Part shown: positions 531-7,545 of the stretch, in pieces
Position numbering within the stretch: position 1 is the first letter of the stretch
Layout of the letters: each line of letters starts with the position of its first letter
IMG/VR virus record: IMGVR_UViG_2693429524_000008
Reading direction: 5' to 3' (one strand)
Length of the DNA: 7,545 bases
Origin: a virus
Lineage: Duplodnaviria; Heunggongvirae; Uroviricota; Caudoviricetes
Position numbers and translations under genes: made by a program
The notes under the pieces: model-generated
What the model was told of the DNA's origin: nothing
The model's database searches: none
What the model saw: only the letters and a program-made list of their open reading frames with translations

Positions 531-757
531 TTTCTTTCCTCTGTTATGCCATCACCCGCGCTCACCTGGACAGTATGCAGCGGAGACTGAAGAGCCGCAA
601 TGCAGGCTTGTCGTGTTGTGAGGTAAGGAGATTTATTCTTAGTGGGATCTTTGCGTGTTGCCTGAAGACGCCCTGTGCGTATCCAGTTAATGGCAGTCGG
701 TCTGGATATCTTGAGAAAATGACAGGCCTCATCGAGAGTGAGGCTGTATGGCTCCAT
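407..757 (-). CDS. xis: Excisionase-like HTH DNA-binding protein (Xis/AlpA family), 116 aa
   Basis: Within ORF 407..841; start chosen at the internal ATG 755..757 ([31 protein letters not shown]...), which has a GAGGTG Shine-Dalgarno about 8 nt upstream and overlaps the stop of the upstream gene as TAATG. The HTH segment resembles excisionase/AlpA-type regulators. Lies immediately upstream of and overlapping int (407..530), as in lambdoid int-xis modules. Confidence 0.55.
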
Positions 758-1062
758 TATTTCACCTCTTGCTGTGACATTGTTGAAAAATGGATACCAG
801 CTCGTTGCTGCCAGACGATCCAACCGAGAGTCATATCCCATGCCATGTATTCGTTATCGCCGTTTTTTGCTCTCCGACGATCTACTAAGTCACCGAAACG
901 CTTTTCCATGAATAATTCATAAGCTTCGCGTTCATCTGGTTCTACTTCCAGAGATAGGAGTGCGATTTCATAAGCACGGCGCTCAATATCGTCTCGCACG
1001 TCAAGGCTGCTGATACGCTCTTTAATTTCTTTAATCAGTTCTTTGTCGGTAAAAGTGGTCAT
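757..1062 (-). CDS. Hypothetical small acidic phage protein, 101 aa
   Basis: ORF MTTFTDKELIKEIKERISSLDVRDDIERRAYEIALLSLEVEPDEREAYELFMEKRF...; its start overlaps the upstream stop as TAATG (1060..1064) and its stop overlaps the xis start as TAATG (755..759), indicating translational coupling in a leftward operon. No recognisable domain. Confidence 0.5.
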   Translation of the reverse strand: MTTFTDKELIKEIKERISSLDVRDDIERRAYEIALLSLEVEPDEREAYELFMEKRFGDLVDRRRAKNGDNEYMAWDMTLGWIVWQQRAGIHFSTMSQQEVK

Positions 1063-1424
1063 TATGCTCCAGCCTCCGGTGCTTTTGGCATTACTGCCCA
1101 GTGAGTGATATTGACGTTTTCAAGGTCCCCAACCTGAAATGTCCACTGCCATTCTCCGGTTTCTTTTTGTCCCCAGGTGTACCAGAGAGAACGCCAACCA
1201 ATTAGCCAGCCTTCTCCGTTAGCATCGAATAACAAAACACTTTCATTTGCTGGTGGCAGTTCAGTTGACACTGGTATTACTTTGTTTTCCTGTGCTGCAC
1301 ATTTAGCTTCAAGCGCATCGAATTTACGCACCAGGTATTCAGCATCTGTTTCATTTACTTTCAGATCTCGCGGTACACATCTCCCACGAAGAAACCCTTC
1401 CATTTCGAAAACATTCATGCGCAT
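1062..1424 (-). CDS. DUF551-domain phage protein, 120 aa (alternative start at ATG 1416..1418, which overlaps the upstream stop as ATGA)
   Basis: C-terminal segment ...ESVLLFDANGEGWLIGWRSLWYTWGQKETGEWQWTFQVGDLENVNITHWAVMPKAPE matches the recalled DUF551 pattern (W-rich, ending in a THW-x-x-P-x-x-P motif) common in lambdoid early-left regions. Confidence 0.6.
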   Translation of the reverse strand: MRMNVFEMEGFLRGRCVPRDLKVNETDAEYLVRKFDALEAKCAAQENKVIPVSTELPPANESVLLFDANGEGWLIGWRSLWYTWGQKETGEWQWTFQVGDLENVNITHWAVMPKAPEAGA

Positions 1425-1951
1425 TTGCGTAACTCCGATAACTCGTTAAAGCGTTCCATAAACATCCCGTAGGCATGGCCCGGTGCCAGTGGAATCACGT
1501 TGAACATCTCTGTTGCCGGGATACCTTCCAGTACAGGCCAGAAAGAGCCATCATCAAGCCCGAGATCGCGGCGTTCGGTTGCCAGCATGATGAGATCGGC
1601 ATATTTCACGGGCGTACTCATAACTGGGGGTAACCCGTATTTCTCACGGATTACGGCGTCTATTTTTTCTTCCATTTGTTTATAGTCAGGAAGAAGGCGT
1701 TTCAGTGGTGCGGGAATGTCCTGGCAATACGCTTCTGTTGCATCATGCATTAACGCTTCAAAAGCAAATTCCTGCGGCACCAACTGGCTGCAAAGAACCG
1801 CATGTTGGGCGACGCTGTAGAAGTGCGAAAGATGACCGGCAAAGCGACAGATATTTGAAAGGGAAACCGCGATATCGTTAATATCGATGTCGTCTTTATT
1901 TATCCTGTCATAATAAAAATGCTTCCCGGAAAAAGTTTTAATAAATGACAT
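1415..1951 (-). CDS. yfdR: HD-domain 5'-deoxynucleotidase, YfdR-like (YfbR family), 178 aa
   Basis: Within ORF 1415..1978; start placed at ATG 1949..1951 (MSFIKTFSGKHFYYD...) because of a GGAGAA Shine-Dalgarno 6 nt upstream. HD-domain metal-binding signature visible (H..H in HLSHFYSVAQH and HD in EALMHDATEAY). Length and N-terminus match my recollection of the CPS-53 prophage protein YfdR. Confidence 0.7.
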   Translation of the reverse strand: MSFIKTFSGKHFYYDRINKDDIDINDIAVSLSNICRFAGHLSHFYSVAQHAVLCSQLVPQEFAFEALMHDATEAYCQDIPAPLKRLLPDYKQMEEKIDAVIREKYGLPPVMSTPVKYADLIMLATERRDLGLDDGSFWPVLEGIPATEMFNVIPLAPGHAYGMFMERFNELSELRKCA

Positions 1952-2044
1952 TTTGTTCTCCACGTATATGCGCTGCACCGCGCTGAATTTTGGTTAAAGA
2001 AAACCCTCGCCATCAGGCGATTATTGAGTTAATTACGTTTCTAT

Positions 2045-2066
2045 AAATGCCCCCGCAGGGGCATTT
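2045..2066. other. GC-rich hairpin (9-bp stem AAATGCCCC / GGGGCATTT, 4-nt loop) in the yfdQ-like to yfdR-like intergenic spacer
   Basis: Perfect inverted repeat seen directly; no U-tract follows on either strand, so it is not a canonical intrinsic terminator. Confidence 0.4.
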
Positions 2067-2078
2067 GCAGTAATGAAA

Positions 2079-2903
2079 TCAGGCGGTGAAAGTACCAATA
2101 AAGGTTTCTACTTTGCTGTCTTTGAATTTTTCAACAAGCAGATTACGAAATTCGTTAGCCATTTCTTCCTGTACTGCTTCCAGCTGAATAATGCGCAGAA
2201 CCAGTACAGGGCGATCACCAGTGATAATGCTGAGGCGTAATTTAAACGGACGTTCTTTCAGGCCTTCAAACGGAACGCATTTAAACTCAAATGCTACTGG
2301 CATAATGTCTTTAGTTTTCGCTTCGACAGACTCCATCAGAGAGCGTTTGCCGCTGAAGTCATTGTCTTCAAAATCAGCGGTCTGGTTTGCTTCAATCGTG
2401 ATTTTACGGACCGCCGCAGCCGCTTTTGTTGCCTGAATGGCGTCACCATTAGCATCAAAGCCCACAAGGTAGTCGGCCCAGTCTTCAATCCATTCTGCCA
2501 GTGACTTCTGGGAGTTACGCTCGCCGTTAACAGACAACAGGGCAGAGAACGGTGCTGTCTTTTTCAGTTTGAGAGTGGCGGTGTTATCTGCGTGACCTGG
2601 TTCATCAATAGTACCCAGGTTAAGCACACTGACGGCTCGCATATTATCAGCATCGATAAAGCAGCGGGTGCTTTCATCTGCAAGATCTTTAGAATAACGG
2701 GTAAAGTCATCGATGCTGGCAGTGGAAAGCGCACCACGGAAACGGAAGCGATTTAAATTAAATTTTTCCAGATCATGAATGCGGAAATTCTCAGGCAATG
2801 CCACAGCATCGGCACCAATCTTACTGATAATTTCATTAACACCCTGAGCAGAAATAAGGGCATGGATTTGATTAATTTCGGTTGCGTCTAAGTTCTGAGA
2901 CAT
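2079..2903 (-). CDS. yfdQ: YfdQ-like DUF2303 family prophage protein, 274 aa
   Basis: Long clean ORF with a GAGGA Shine-Dalgarno 6 nt upstream of ATG 2901..2903. Sequence ([33 protein letters not shown]...) and length agree with my recollection of CPS-53 YfdQ; synteny between the YfdP-like and YfdR-like genes supports this. Confidence 0.65.
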
Positions 2904-2968
2904 AATAAGTCCTCACTATATAAAGATATTCAGTGATGAGATAAATAATCAGTTAATTAAGAACGATA

Positions 2969-3331
2969 TTAATGACCTGCTGCGCGGAGTTTTCCGTCAG
3001 GCTCACCGGCAAGAGTCAGTAATTGTCCCTGGTCTTCCTGCAGAATAGTCAGGCGACCACCGCGATTGACATACATCGGTGTTTCGGTGGTGTCTTCTTC
3101 GGAAATTTTCCCGCGGTTAGTCGGGCGAACATATGAGAGTTTGTGTTTGATTTTCACACGGTTCTCATCAAATGGTTCGATTTCCAGGTTGAGCGAGACC
3201 TTACCTTTGGTTTTCGTGTTCATCACACCGGAAGCGACTTCACTGAGAACTGCGCCGATTTTGGTTTCAAATACGCCGCCGTCCAGCTCCCCGATAAATG
3301 CCTGCACATCAGTACTGCGTTCGCTAGCCAT
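2969..3331 (-). CDS. yfdP: YfdP-like small prophage protein, 120 aa (the longer ORF to 3517 is probably upstream read-through)
   Basis: Start placed at ATG 3329..3331 (MASERSTDVQAFIGELDGG...) because AGGAG lies 7 nt upstream; the 62 codons above it are Cys/Arg/His-rich and not protein-like. Gene order P then Q then R on the minus strand matches the yfdP-yfdQ-yfdR order recalled for E. coli K-12 CPS-53. Confidence 0.5.
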   Translation of the reverse strand: MASERSTDVQAFIGELDGGVFETKIGAVLSEVASGVMNTKTKGKVSLNLEIEPFDENRVKIKHKLSYVRPTNRGKISEEDTTETPMYVNRGGRLTILQEDQGQLLTLAGEPDGKLRAAGH

Positions 3332-3379
3332 TTTGCTGCTCCTCATCATATCGACCCTGCAAGGTCGGTTAGTTTCTCC

Positions 3380-3468: not shown

Positions 3469-3946
3469 AAAAAGAGCGGTACCAGCCGGAAGCAAGTGTA
3501 CAAACTGGTACCGCCAAAGCAGTGGCTGTTGTGGTGACCGGTGCTGATCTCCGGCTTGCGGTTATTTCAGACTCTCACGGGCGTTTAATTGCCCCGCCGA
3601 ACAGCTCTTTTCCGCAATAGCTGCAATGTCTTTCGCGCATCAGTCTGCGCATTCACCACAACGCTGAGAGCACTTAGCCAGTTACGGCACCACACTTTGT
3701 CGCGGTTCCATAAATGCCCTCATCGTTGCACCCTGGTCTCTTCCCAGGCGTCAAACCGAATCGCCACGCTGGTTAGGCGTCTTATCAGCATCATCATTGA
3801 CTTGCACATTCCGGCTACCTGGTTTGTTTGCTCGAGCAAGGAGTGGATTGTCCCCTTTAACGTCACCAGACCGCTAACGACGCATGTGCCATACGCCGTG
3901 TTACAACCAAATTTTGTTTTAATCTTGCCTGTGTTATGTTTCTTTT

Positions 3947-3980
3947 AGATACATTGTGTATCTCATGGATACATTGTCAA
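3947..3980 (-). promoter_or_regulatory. Candidate leftward early promoter (pL-like) with overlapping operator: minus-strand -35 TTGACA (3975..3980), 16-nt spacer, -10 CACAAT (3953..3958); perfect 17-bp palindrome AGATACA-TTG-TGTATCT (3947..3963) plus a second GATACATTG half-site copy (3968..3976)
   Basis: Consensus -35 hexamer and palindrome seen directly; the -10 is weak (lacks the first T). Position immediately downstream of the repressor terminator and upstream of the leftward gene block fits an oL/pL arrangement. Confidence 0.4.
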
Positions 3981-4019: not shown

Positions 4020-4694
4020 TTAGGCCTTTATTGTGTATCTTCTTGGTTTTCCCGAGAAAATCACTGTACCAATTATAGAGCAATTACCGTTAATCTTAAT
4101 GTAAGGCTCAGGCCAGTTTGGGTTTAATGCTTTGAGATAACGCTGTGTTCCATCTTCTATCAATCGCTTGAAGGTGGTTTCGCCTGTATCGTGCATCAAT
4201 GCAATAACGTCGTCACCGTGGCAGGCAGGGACTTCGGGATCAACAAAAATCATGTCTCCAGGGCGGTACTCATCAATCATTGAATCACCAATCACCCGCA
4301 AGATATAAGTCATTTCGCCACAGGGTACAGGGCAGGGATACGTTTCTGCTGTGCTCAAATCAACCTCAGAATAGCCAACTTCTTTCCATGCTCCGGCCTG
4401 TACCCATGATATGACAGGGACTAACGTTATTTGTTTGTTAGTGATTGAAACATCAGGTTTTTTTGTGATGTTCGTTGTCTGGTGTTCTTGATCAAGCCAT
4501 CCGACAGGCAGGTCGAAACATTTTTCGATGTGCCGTGCCATGCTGTCACCGATATTTTTAGTAGCGCCATCCCCCATAAACCTGCTGGTCTGGGTTGGCT
4601 CGCGATCAATCATGGTGGCAAAGGATGAATTTCCGCCAACACCATCTCTCAGTTTTCTGGCGTTAGACCGCCGGATGTCATGGATTGTTTTCAT
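4020..4694 (-). CDS. CI-like prophage repressor: N-terminal HTH domain plus C-terminal S24 (LexA/UmuD-like) autopeptidase domain, 224 aa
   Basis: C-terminal half carries the S24 signature: putative Ala-Gly cleavage site (VQAGAW), Ser nucleophile in VIGDSM and Lys in TFKRL. Divergently oriented to a Cro-like gene across an operator-bearing spacer. Confidence 0.8.
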   Translation of the reverse strand: MKTIHDIRRSNARKLRDGVGGNSSFATMIDREPTQTSRFMGDGATKNIGDSMARHIEKCFDLPVGWLDQEHQTTNITKKPDVSITNKQITLVPVISWVQAGAWKEVGYSEVDLSTAETYPCPVPCGEMTYILRVIGDSMIDEYRPGDMIFVDPEVPACHGDDVIALMHDTGETTFKRLIEDGTQRYLKALNPNWPEPYIKINGNCSIIGTVIFSGKPRRYTIKA

Positions 4695-5016: not shown

Positions 5017-5580
5017 ATGAGGCTAACCGTGGGTAAGCATCACTGGAAAGTAGAAAAACAGCCTGAGTGGTACGTGAAAGCTGTCAGAAAAACTATCGCA
5101 GCGTTGCCGGGTGGTTACGCTGAAGCAGCTGACTGGCTGGATGTAACAGAGAACGCATTATTTAACCGCCTTCGTGCCTATGGCGATCAGATTTTCCCGC
5201 TGGGATGGGCAATGGTTTTACAGCGCGCGGCTGGCACTCACTACATTGCGGATGCTGTCGCACAGTCTGCTGGTGGGGTGTTCGTATCGCTTCCTGAAAT
5301 TGAGGAAGTAGAGAACGCCGATATAAACCAGCGCCTGCTGGAAGTCATTGAACAGATCGGCAGTTATTCAAAACAGATTCGTTCAGCAATTGAAGACGGT
5401 GTAGTGGAACCGAATGAGAAGACAGCAATTAACGACGAGCTGTACCTCTCAATTTCGAAGCTGCAGGAGCATGCAGCACTGGTCTACAAAATTTTTTGCA
5501 TTTCAGAAAGTAATGACGCCCGCGAGTGTGCAGCTCCGGGCGCCGTGGCGTGTCGTGACTGTGGAGAAACTAACGCATGA
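5017..5580 (+). CDS. CII-like phage regulatory protein (CP76-type), 187 aa; possible alternative GTG start at 5029 with a GAGG Shine-Dalgarno
   Basis: Position directly after cro; sequence features (WYVKAV..., [37 protein letters not shown]...) match my recollection of the enterobacterial phage CII/CP76 family. Its stop overlaps the next ATG as ATGA (5577..5580). Confidence 0.55.
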
Positions 5581-5935: not shown

Positions 5936-6263
5936 ATTAACCGGCTATGTATGGGATGGTTGCGCTGCATCAGGCATGAAATTATCCAGCGTGGCAATTA
6001 TGGCCCGCCTGGCTGATTTCAGTAATGACGAAGGTGTGTGCTGGCCATCAATTGAAACCATTGCCCGTCAGATTGGCGCGGGGATGAGTACCGTCAGAAC
6101 GGCTATCGCACGGCTGGAAGCAGAAGGCTGGTTAACGCGTAAGGCGCGTCGCCAGGGTAACCGCAATGCGTCGAATGTTTATCAGCTTAACGTTGCGAAG
6201 CTTCAGGCAGCGGCATTTTCTCAACTGTCAGATTCTGACCCGTCAAAATTTCTTACCTGCTGA
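5925..6263 (+). CDS. Winged-helix (HTH_36-like) replication-initiator-type N-terminal domain protein, 112 aa; possibly the 5' remnant of a longer O-like replication gene
   Basis: AGAGG Shine-Dalgarno 6 nt upstream of ATG 5925. Motif ...DEGVCWPSIETIARQIGAGMSTVRTAIARLEAEGWLTRKARRQGNRNASNVYQLN is typical of the HTH domain at the N-terminus of phage replication-initiation proteins. Followed by about 290 bp without a convincing ORF. Confidence 0.55.
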   Translation: MSTKLTGYVWDGCAASGMKLSSVAIMARLADFSNDEGVCWPSIETIARQIGAGMSTVRTAIARLEAEGWLTRKARRQGNRNASNVYQLNVAKLQAAAFSQLSDSDPSKFLTC

Positions 6264-6555
6264 CAAGTGGGTAACGCCACGCATGATGACGAGAACTACC
6301 GGAGTAAGCGAAGCCAGGTGCCAGTTAATACTGACTCAGTTAGTTCTGGCGGGTCTGGCGAAGGATAACGGCGGGTACGGGAATAAATTCAGACGCTGCC
6401 AGTAATGGCGGTTTCCTGCTGTGAAAATGGGCGGCTGGTGGGTGTTGGTAGCACCTGCCAGCCATTCGCTCATGCTTACTGGTCACAAGCGAACCACGGC
6501 CCACTGCTTTAGCGCAAAAGCAGAGTGAGCCTACCAGAGTTACGCTTACTGATCC

Positions 6556-7437
6556 ATGAAAAATACTGTAAAAATAAACAGTATTGATTTAATCAACGCT
6601 GATTGCCTGCATTTTATTCAGTCCCTGCCTGATGATTCCATTGACCTGATTGTTACCGATCCGCCTTACTTCAAGGTGAAACCTAACGGTTGGGACAATC
6701 AGTGGAAAGGGGACGAAGATTACCTTAAGTGGCTGGACCACTGTCTGGCCCAGTTCTGGCGGGTGTTAAAACCTGCCGGAAGCCTTTACCTGTTCTGTGG
6801 GCATCGCCTGGCATCTGATATTGAGATCATGATGCGTGAACGTTTCAACGTGCTTAACCATATCATCTGGGCGAAGCCGTCCGGACGTTGGAATGGGTGT
6901 AATAAAGAAAGTCTGCGCGCATATTTTCCTGCCACAGAGCGCGTTCTGTTTGCTGAACATTACCAGGGGCCATATCGCGGCAAAAGTGACGGCTATGCAG
7001 CAAAAGAAAGGGAACTCAAACAGCACATAATGGCACCGCTGATATCGTATTTCAGGGATGCTCGTGCCGAACTGGGTATAACGGCAAAACAAATTGCCGA
7101 AGCCACAGGTAAGAAAAATATGGTTTCCCACTGGTTTGGTGCCAGTCAGTGGCAGTTGCCGAATGAGGCTGACTATCGGAAGTTACAGGCACTGTTTTCC
7201 CGTATAGCGGCAGAGAAGTTTCAGGAACAACAACTGGAACAACCACACCACCAGCTGGTGGCATCTTATGATTCACTGAATCGCAAATATTCTGAATTGC
7301 TGGATGAGTTTAAATCTCTCCGGCGCTATTTCTCCGTATCAGTCTCCGTGCCTTATACCGATGTCTGGATGCATAAACCCGTTCAGTTCTACCCGGGTAA
7401 ACATCCGTGTGAGAAACCGGCGGATATGCTCAGGTGA
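6556..7437 (+). pseudogene. N6-adenine DNA methyltransferase (beta-class, phage Dam-like), 3'-truncated at the IS junction (methyltransferase-derived part 6556..7434)
   Basis: Catalytic motif IV, IVTDPPYF, near the N-terminus; the ORF ends ...YPGKHPCEKPADMLR-stop, six residues after the HP-x-x-KP motif that normally precedes the C-terminal AdoMet-binding motif (DPF-x-GSGTT type), which is missing. The TGA stop (7435..7437) is the first three bases of the IS terminal repeat. Confidence 0.75.
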
Positions 7438-7545
7438 ACCGCCCCGGGTTTCCTGGAGAGTGTTTTATCTGTGAACTCAGGCTGCCAGATCATCGTTTCC
7501 GATGGAAGCATAATAAGCTTTTTCTGCTTCTGCCGGAGGAGTATG
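7435..7545 (-). mobile_element. 3' terminal fragment of a second IS3-family (IS629/IS1203-like) copy in inverted orientation: right terminal inverted repeat starting TGAACC at 7435, transposase C-terminus on the minus strand (7477..7545)
   Basis: Exact reverse complement of 1..111; same reasoning as for the left-hand fragment. Confidence 0.6.

Follow-up and report, generated by a model that had tools for sequence, protein, structure and literature searches.

The yfdP-yfdQ-yfdR block analysed here lies in a 7,545-base stretch of phage DNA (IMG/VR record IMGVR_UViG_2693429524_000008; the whole stretch is called the window below), a lambdoid prophage remnant with ends cut by an insertion sequence (IS). 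A close described counterpart is the series yfdP-yfdQ-yfdR-yfdS-yfdT (b2359-b2363) of CPS-53 (KplE1) in Escherichia coli K-12. In that strain multiple copies of yfdQ-yfdR-yfdS-yfdT were shown to suppress hda-185 (Noguchi and Katayama 2016, PMC4776307). According to the same study, inhibition of initiation in vivo requires yfdQ and yfdR together with yfdS or yfdT in multicopy, and inhibition is seen also in extracts. Purified YfdR binds domain I of DnaA, DnaA Phe46 being important, competes moderately with DiaA and DnaB, and has a weak phosphatase activity on 5′-deoxynucleoside monophosphates (dNMPs), with a nucleotide affinity below that of YfbR (PMC4776307). Cells deleted for yfdQ were more sensitive to methyl methanesulfonate (MMS) and H2O2, and those deleted for yfdS to H2O2 (PMC4776307). 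The initial annotation of the window had noted that K-12 YfdR is reported to bind DnaA and inhibits replication initiation when overexpressed; the binding is borne out by this work, whereas inhibition is not achieved by YfdR alone and needs yfdQ plus yfdS or yfdT. It had also held the functions of YfdP and YfdQ to be unknown, in agreement with a 2025 survey, which lists the yfdQ and yfdP types as being without known function (PMC12315714). Here we report that yfdP and yfdQ are an obligate pair and an evolutionary unit, which is new, and that YfdR is a facultative, separately mobile HD-domain neighbour of this pair.

The block and its described relatives

The gene order and the gene lengths in CPS-53 (120/274/178/120/101 amino acids, AA) are the same as in the window, and the DNA is 96.4% identical over window positions 704-3350. 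The proteins share 99.2% (YfdP), 98.2% (YfdQ), 97.8% (YfdR), 95.8% (YfdS) and 96% (YfdT) of residues with their K-12 counterparts; for YfdR this corresponds to 174 of 178 residues at the same genomic position. What had been annotated as three co-oriented genes for YfdP-, YfdQ- and YfdR-like proteins of 120, 274 and 178 AA, sizes that agree exactly with the list of open reading frames (ORFs) and with the sequence, are thus in fact orthologues of the K-12 genes (97.8-99.2%). The ratio of non-synonymous to synonymous substitutions (dN/dS) against K-12 was 0.06-0.12 for all five genes from yfdP to yfdT (0.06-0.10 for yfdP, yfdQ and yfdR), indicating that their products are under purifying selection.

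Shigella phage SfV carries the same genes as orf28-orf32, with 98% DNA identity over the 1917-bp block and in the same place, from cI/pL to xis-int. Protein identity was 100% for orf32 (YfdP), 98.2% for orf31 (YfdQ), 99.4% for orf30 (YfdR) and 100% for both orf29 (YfdS) and orf28 (YfdT). SfV is a complete plaque-forming phage, while the window is an IS-cut remnant with a different patch of ~400 bp at 3517-3922. Across SfV, SfIV, Ayreon and Stx2c-converting phages, identity over the 1917 bp amounts to 97-98%, and at least 80% of the block was found in 2456 of 5426 complete E. coli genomes (45%). By colinearity with SfV, the block lies between the pL-like promoter and xis/int. The lambdoid placement therefore stands, whereas the idea of an accessory module, out of the ordinary in a prophage that is otherwise lambdoid, does not: yfdP-yfdQ-yfdR is a standard lambdoid early-left module (SfV, SfIV, mEp460, ST64B, Stx2c phages). 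The observed block is real and its genes are already known. The window itself adds nothing beyond K-12 and SfV, and the value of the locus lies in the gene family, since few phage gene pairs of no assigned function are as common as yfdP-yfdQ (PHROGs 204 and 210; 1787 YfdQ clusters; nearly half of complete E. coli genomes), and since the pair sits in an operon in which the neighbouring YfdR binds the replication initiator.

CPS-53 is devoid of an immunity region, whereas the window retains both the cI-like gene and the pL-like promoter. At positions 7496-7587 of the K-12 locus (L089), window position ~3350 is joined to ~6158; CPS-53 is colinear with 704-3350 and then runs straight into 6158-6249. 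We conclude from this jump that the whole immunity and early-right region was lost in K-12, and because of this loss yfdP adjoins yfdO there, under the host regulator SrsR.

YfdP and YfdQ form an obligate pair

For the analysis of linkage, 84 diverse viral loci (17 clusters at 70% identity) were gathered with a YfdQ alignment made from five distant phages; a viral-contig scan with an enteric alignment gave near-identical loci only, and single distant proteins gave too few loci. A YfdP homologue was located directly upstream of YfdQ and on the same strand in all 83 testable loci, the 84th being cut by the contig end. The two genes were separated by 6-156 nt, mostly by 42-55 nt, and by 65 nt (yfdP stop to yfdQ start) in the window. 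YfdP also directly preceded YfdQ in five of the five distant phages, Pseudomonas PG1, Thalassomonas BA3, Vibrio 36E38.1, Xanthomonas CP2 and Psychrobacter Psymv2, with YfdQ proteins 31-46% identical to that of the window. In the phage database YfdQ was present in 184 records and YfdP in 180, the distribution over host genera being the same. Profile-profile comparison of YfdP with YfdQ revealed no relation between the two. Linkage of the genes, the lack of which would have spoken against the initial annotation, is conserved; it is strict for yfdP-yfdQ (83/83) and facultative for yfdR (33/83).

Three E. coli proteins (P0011, P0070 and P0160) were considered as natural Rosetta-stone fusions and rejected; these are singleton in-frame deletion fusions of a YfdP N-terminus with a YfdQ C-terminus, and represent signs of decay in some prophages.

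The pair is found among genes of DNA transactions in several arrangements. In ArgO145 the order is Gam, RecT, exonuclease, single-stranded DNA-binding protein (SSB), YfdP, YfdQ. In CP2, YfdP and YfdQ are followed by a 511-AA protein, Erf, exonuclease, endonuclease and SSB, and in Vibrio 36E38.1 YfdP, YfdQ and SSB are preceded by a protein containing the YqaJ exonuclease domain and by an epsilon-like exonuclease. Pseudomonas-type temperate phages show the order repressor, PrtN-like activator, dNMP kinase, YfdP, YfdQ, HD gene, C5 methylase and integrase. No DNA polymerase is annotated in CP2 and 36E38.1, and no integrase in 36E38.1. The pair is thus present in temperate phages as well as in phages without an annotated integrase, and in the latter SSB and recombination genes usually adjoin it. 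As the pair shares loci with DNA-transaction genes, its function would be one of the early lytic cycle and not that of lysogenic-conversion cargo.

The YqaJ-type protein of 36E38.1 (p0025; 577 AA; L084 1162-2892), encoded two genes upstream of yfdP, has its exonuclease domain (E 2.6e-11) at the N-terminus. Its C-terminal part is long and has no annotation, and an exonuclease and an annealing protein may be fused here.

Properties of YfdQ

YfdQ of the window matched Pfam PF10065 (DUF2303) over residues 7-272 of 274 (E 2.5e-92; 309.4 bits against a cut-off of 26.6) and PHROG 210 (E 7e-119). The family comprises 1787 clusters at 50% identity, and among the best 150 hits nearly all members are ~265-285 AA long and none is a multi-domain protein. 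Weak Pfam matches of distant YfdQ members were inconsistent and were dismissed. Ten polar residues (E46, R56, T61, Y70, H104, Q132, E140, D141, R166, R223), all present in the window protein, are each conserved in 90% or more of 151 sequences whose median identity is 39%. This conserved polar set is compatible with an active or binding site.

A search of sequences in the Protein Data Bank (PDB) identified entry 9o7m, a 274-AA "YfdQ Protein" with 36 chains (E 8e-44 to window YfdQ). The sequence belongs to a CP2-type Xanthomonas phage, with 98.9% identity to MET23-P3. Deposition as a 36-chain model suggests that YfdQ forms a large homo-oligomer. Our literature search found no publication on 9o7m. 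Prediction of the DUF2303 structure, proposed in the initial annotation, gave an AlphaFold model with a mean confidence score (pLDDT) of 74.8 and two beta-alpha-beta-beta-beta units, in which the loop 171-198 is conserved, yet of low confidence. The model brought no informative fold match, and an experimental entry for a homologue, 9o7m, already exists; Foldseek against the PDB returned nothing at E ≤ 0.001 from a library reaching to 2026-04-08 and lacking 9o7m. Fold searches with both YfdP and YfdQ gave no functional match.

One member of the family has been detected in virions. Gp10 (DUF2303) of Burkholderia phage JC1 was represented by five unique peptides in mass spectrometry of CsCl-purified virions, and the authors suggest that it is DNA-associated (PMC9144972). 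JC1 gp10 is encoded in a replication/repair module near RecT and YqaJ genes and was likened by its authors to T4 gp2; nothing comparable to its virion detection is known for the enteric YfdQ proteins. At the same time, a megadalton oligomer could simply co-purify with JC1 virions.

YfdP and its conserved tail peptide

YfdP matched PHROG 204 (E 1.2e-49), and the representative of its cluster, 99% identical to it, has the precomputed Pfam label PF27127. In the AlphaFold2 model (pLDDT 80.6) YfdP is a small alpha+beta protein; a long helix at the N-terminus is followed by three long beta-strands and by a C-terminal tail of low confidence (pLDDT ~50) that is predicted to be disordered. The sole conserved element of this tail is a short peptide of the form xx[Q/D][L/M]F. 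In the window residues 101-105 read QGQLL; most enteric homologues have QGQLF or QGNLF, and QHDLF, QKDLF, QDDLF, NKDLF, TAQLF or TDQMF occur elsewhere. Of 14 clusters, 13 retain the terminal [L/M]F, and QFNLT or QYDLT is found in the Vibrio clade.

Binding of the beta-clamp follows a weak consensus, Q-L-x-L-F, typically placed in flexible termini (PMC4549789). The YfdP tail agrees with it partially; Gln occupies position 1 in only around half of them, and no cluster has Leu at position 2. A precedent is MuC of phage Mu, a small phage protein that binds the beta-clamp via near-consensus clamp-binding motifs (PMC12867686); for YfdP, a contact of the MuC type would be a matter of motif resemblance. 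We consider it rather unlikely, although worth stating, that YfdP is a clamp adaptor with a tail peptide that would bind DnaN and tether the YfdQ oligomer to clamps on replicating or recombining DNA. Contact with YfdQ is an equally possible role of the peptide. If YfdP did act in this way, phages relying on host Pol III could capture or block the replisome alongside the action of YfdR on DnaA, and yfdPQ would be an unrecognised, widespread class of phage replisome-hijacking factors.

YfdR, a DnaA-binding protein in K-12, is a facultative neighbour

The translated sequence of YfdR contains the HD signature H...HD...D (H50, H69-D70, D119), and K-12 YfdR (b2361) is named 5′-deoxynucleotidase in RefSeq, both in accordance with its first annotation as an HD-domain 5′-deoxynucleotidase. 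It matched PHROG 318 (E 2.7e-110) and the HD protein Atu1052 (PDB 2gz4, E 3e-14). YfdR, described as a structural homologue with 5′-nucleotidase activity, shares the HD fold and the metal-site signature with the E. coli HD-domain 5′-deoxynucleotidase YfbR (PDB 2paq). YfdR remained below the YfbR cut-offs (NCBIfam equivalog NF003009, 20.5 bits vs. 122; Pfam PF12917, 25.2 vs. 25.9), and is a relative, but not an equivalog or orthologue, of YfbR; DnaA binding was shown for YfdR.

In closely related enteric loci YfdR followed the pair in 77 of 77 testable cases, and it does so in ST64B. Among the diverse loci it was present in 33 of 83, and a YfdR homologue was not detected in ArgO145, PG1, BA3 and Psymv2 or in the whole genomes of CP2 and 36E38.1. 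YfdR homologues occur in 333 phage records with a host distribution unlike that of YfdP and YfdQ. The operon is a mosaic also past yfdR, as yfdS was found in 48 and yfdT in 34 of 80 close loci.

Other early phage proteins are known to alter initiation at oriC when overproduced, as the YfdR set does, namely lambda P, which binds DnaA and DnaB, and the clamp-binding MuC. Neither has a sequence or fold relation to YfdP or YfdR, and the target of YfdR is domain I of DnaA (Phe46).

A proposed two-unit early-left operon

We propose, as the probable though far from certain reading of these data, that the block in the early-left (pL) operon of the SfV/CPS-53 type (yfdP-yfdQ, then yfdR-yfdS-yfdT-xis) works as two units, the pair yfdP-yfdQ, and yfdR with the help of yfdS or yfdT. 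In the first unit, the YfdP-YfdQ pair would be an accessory DNA-transaction complex acting on replicating or recombining phage DNA, possibly docked on a host replisome protein via the YfdP tail. In the second, YfdR would act with YfdQ and YfdS/T to lower initiation from the host oriC once the operon is derepressed, in favour of phage replication. This two-unit mechanism is the best-supported one. Gene identity, the layout of the operon, linkage and, from the literature, DnaA binding and the multicopy phenotype are shown; the damping of host initiation rests on overproduction of the K-12 proteins. The action of YfdP-YfdQ on DNA we infer from the gene neighbourhood, the DNA-damage phenotypes in K-12 and the oligomeric state, and we likewise infer when the genes are expressed, what part they play in the phage life cycle and every action ascribed to YfdP and YfdQ.

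Several points weigh against this proposal. Early-left operons are mosaics of unrelated genes, and the evidence from gene neighbourhood is for this reason indirect. About 60% of the diverse loci are devoid of YfdR, so that the primary role of the pair cannot be to help YfdR. YfdQ is mildly acidic (isoelectric point ~5.1, net charge -10), which gives no support for DNA binding. The prophage is defective, with IS-cut int and methylase genes, and the block genes may therefore do nothing here. In K-12, deletion of yfdQRST leaves initiation unchanged, and the authors allow for an overproduction artefact; YfdQ, YfdS and YfdT bound neither YfdR nor DnaA strongly, and the phenotype does not depend on yfdP (PMC4776307).

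The charge of YfdQ was discarded as a clue, being neither basic nor similar to that of DNA mimics, and is uninformative. The role of YfdP/YfdQ is more directly testable, as the two are an obligate and YfdR-independent pair that travels with SSB and recombination genes and contains a conserved motif in the YfdP tail.

Alternative explanations

Four other explanations were weighed, each facing specific counter-evidence. It is improbable, in our estimate, that YfdP/YfdQ are an unrecognised recombination system, for annealing or end processing, that stands in for a missing Rec module. The pair does occupy the place of such a module, from pL to xis, in a prophage without a recognisable Rec gene; profile searches with the window proteins recognised no Rec-type protein or domain in this interval. 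Also consistent with it are the MMS sensitivity of the yfdQ deletion, the oligomerisation of YfdQ, as known for annealing proteins, and the frequent presence of SSB next to the pair. The authors of the 2025 survey nevertheless consider yfdP and yfdQ unlikely recombination proteins, as ArgO145 has both beside a complete Rec module (PMC12315714). Chi sites (GCTGGTGG) number five in the 7.5 kb of the window, where 0.24 would be expected, and none of 200 shuffles attained this number. The lack of a Rec gene together with the five Chi sites places this prophage in the class of "no Rec module, high Chi", which uses host RecBCD (PMC12315714).

There is little likelihood, too, that the block serves counter-defence or host takeover without a link to replication, or that it is a prophage-encoded system for the exclusion of other phages. 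Such genes are common in early-left operons, a large YfdQ oligomer could serve as a sponge or decoy, and production of YfdQ in K-12 altered plaque production by a resident phage (bioRxiv 10.1101/413146). Yet none of the five proteins matched a PADLOC-DB defence model at E ≤ 0.01, and profile searches matched no known anti-defence family. The occurrence of the pair in pL-driven early operons and in phages without an annotated integrase argues against a defence expressed by the lysogen. In different lineages the pair also steadily accompanies SSB and recombination genes, which one would not expect of a generic anti-defence gene.

We regard as very improbable that the genes are kept for host stress tolerance, as domesticated genes of cryptic prophages. 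The H2O2 sensitivity of the K-12 yfdQ and yfdS deletions, the MMS sensitivity of the former and the presence of the block in 45% of complete E. coli genomes would agree with it. Furthermore, the yfdO/yfdP spacer is the strongest genomic target of SrsR, which affects yfdPQ mRNA in stationary phase (PMC9181523). However, the SrsR sites lie at a junction specific for K-12, created because the K-12 deletion removed the immunity region. The genes are found in active phages (SfV, SfIV, Ayreon, Stx2c phages) and in phages without an annotated integrase, and those of the window are still preceded by the pL-like promoter and an intact repressor gene, so that they are expected to be silent in the lysogen.

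That the three proteins form one nucleotide-pool pathway, in which YfdR dephosphorylates dNMPs and YfdP/YfdQ are regulators or partner enzymes, is highly unlikely: the HD catalytic residues of YfdR are intact, a YfdR-type HD gene lies ~1 kb downstream of yfdPQ in 33 of 83 loci (7 of 17 clusters), a dNMP kinase is nearby in 17 loci and the invariant E46, R56, H104, Q132, D141, R166 and R223 of YfdQ fit an active or ligand-binding site, but most lineages have the pair without a YfdR homologue, YfdR homologues are widespread in phages without YfdP/YfdQ (333 records, other hosts), the reported nucleotide affinity of YfdR is low and interaction of YfdQ with YfdR was not seen in pull-down.

Organisation of the window

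The features of the window are listed in Table 1. Strong ribosome-binding sites (RBSs), noted in the first annotation, were found by direct reading of the sequence at 5-7 nt from all three start codons: GAGGAG 7 nt 5′ of the yfdP ATG, GTGAGGA 7 nt 5′ of the yfdQ ATG and GGAGAA 5 nt 5′ of the yfdR ATG. An alternative GTG start of yfdR at 1978 would give a product of 187 AA. The stop codon of yfdT overlaps the xis start (TAATG), and a 127-nt yfdQ-yfdR spacer with two hairpins splits yfdPQ from the overlapping genes yfdR-yfdS-yfdT-xis. The site at 2020-2007 in this spacer was also picked up by a scan for terminator-like structures, and phage Ayreon has an annotated terminator inside the matching block.

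Table 1. Positions of genes, regulatory elements and Chi sites in the 7,545-base window
Feature	Position	Strand	Basis and remarks
int, tyrosine integrase, N-terminal part	112-530	minus	ORF; cut at 111/112 by the end of an IS3-family element
xis (excisionase), HTH_17	407-757	minus	Pfam PF12728, E 1.6e-08; colinear with SfV xis
yfdT orthologue	757-1062	minus	101 AA; 5′ end overlaps the yfdS stop (ATGA)
yfdS orthologue (DUF551)	1062-1424	minus	120 AA; 10-nt overlap with the yfdR end
yfdR orthologue, HD-domain phosphohydrolase	1415-1951	minus	178 AA from ATG
Two hairpins in the yfdQ-yfdR spacer	2007-2062	minus	GCCCCTGCGGGGGC at 2049-2062; TCGCCTGATGGCGA and T-rich at 2007-2020
yfdQ orthologue (DUF2303)	2079-2903	minus	274 AA; ORF and RBS
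yfdP orthologue	2969-3331	minus	120 AA; ORF and RBS
pL-like promoter, TTGACA-16-CACAAT	3953-3980	minus	Consensus match; position fits the SfV immunity-region layout
Intrinsic terminator-like hairpin directly after the cI stop codon	3989-4008	minus	8-bp stem, T-run
cI-like repressor, S24 (LexA/UmuD-type) autocleavage domain	4020-4694	minus	Pfam Peptidase_S24, E 1.5e-26
Chi sites	1249-1256 (+), 5269-5276 (+), 6434-6441 (+), 7248-7255 (-), 7254-7261 (+)		Sequence scan

Promoter-like matches across the region were not above chance in number, and the pL-like promoter was called by position, through colinearity with annotated SfV. Operator-like TGTATC/GATACA repeats at 3934-3975 overlap it, and a leader of ~620 bases extends from it to yfdP. 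Counterparts of the cI-like repressor in related genomes are annotated as ymfK/LexA family, and SfV has an annotated terminator at the place equivalent to the hairpin that follows cI. Genes of the cro, cII and replication types and a gene for a DNA methylase lie on the plus strand of the window.

The ~400-bp patch at 3517-3922, which separates the pL-like promoter from the yfdP leader, has no match in SfV or E. coli FDAARGOS_1277, while its flanks match both at 95-98%. We found no convincing ORF in the patch; SfV has at this place the 297-nt orf33 and an extra terminator.

A perfect inverted repeat of 111 nt at 1-111 and 7435-7545 represents one end of an IS3-family element in opposite orientations, and agrees with the terminus of an element whose annotation is that of an IS3-family transposase locus. 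The repeat cuts the integrase gene (111/112) and the DNA methylase gene (ORF 6556-7437), and the window end is probably an assembly break at this repeat.

With respect to RNA genes, a match to STnc100 (Rfam) in the yfdQ-yfdR spacer of the window (1908-2087, minus strand; 21 bits against a gathering score of 47; E 0.29) was rejected as probably due to chance. Sub-threshold STnc100 matches were also seen in the leader upstream of yfdP in SfV (39.5 bits; 8052-8267, minus strand) and ST64B (35.1 bits; 4156-4274, plus strand), and these two may represent a conserved leader RNA of the yfdP operon. The Rfam search did not find isrK and C4 antisense RNA genes in the window; both score above the gathering thresholds in the early regions of SfV (10904-11092), ST64B (1546-1734) and ArgO145 (2913-3100).

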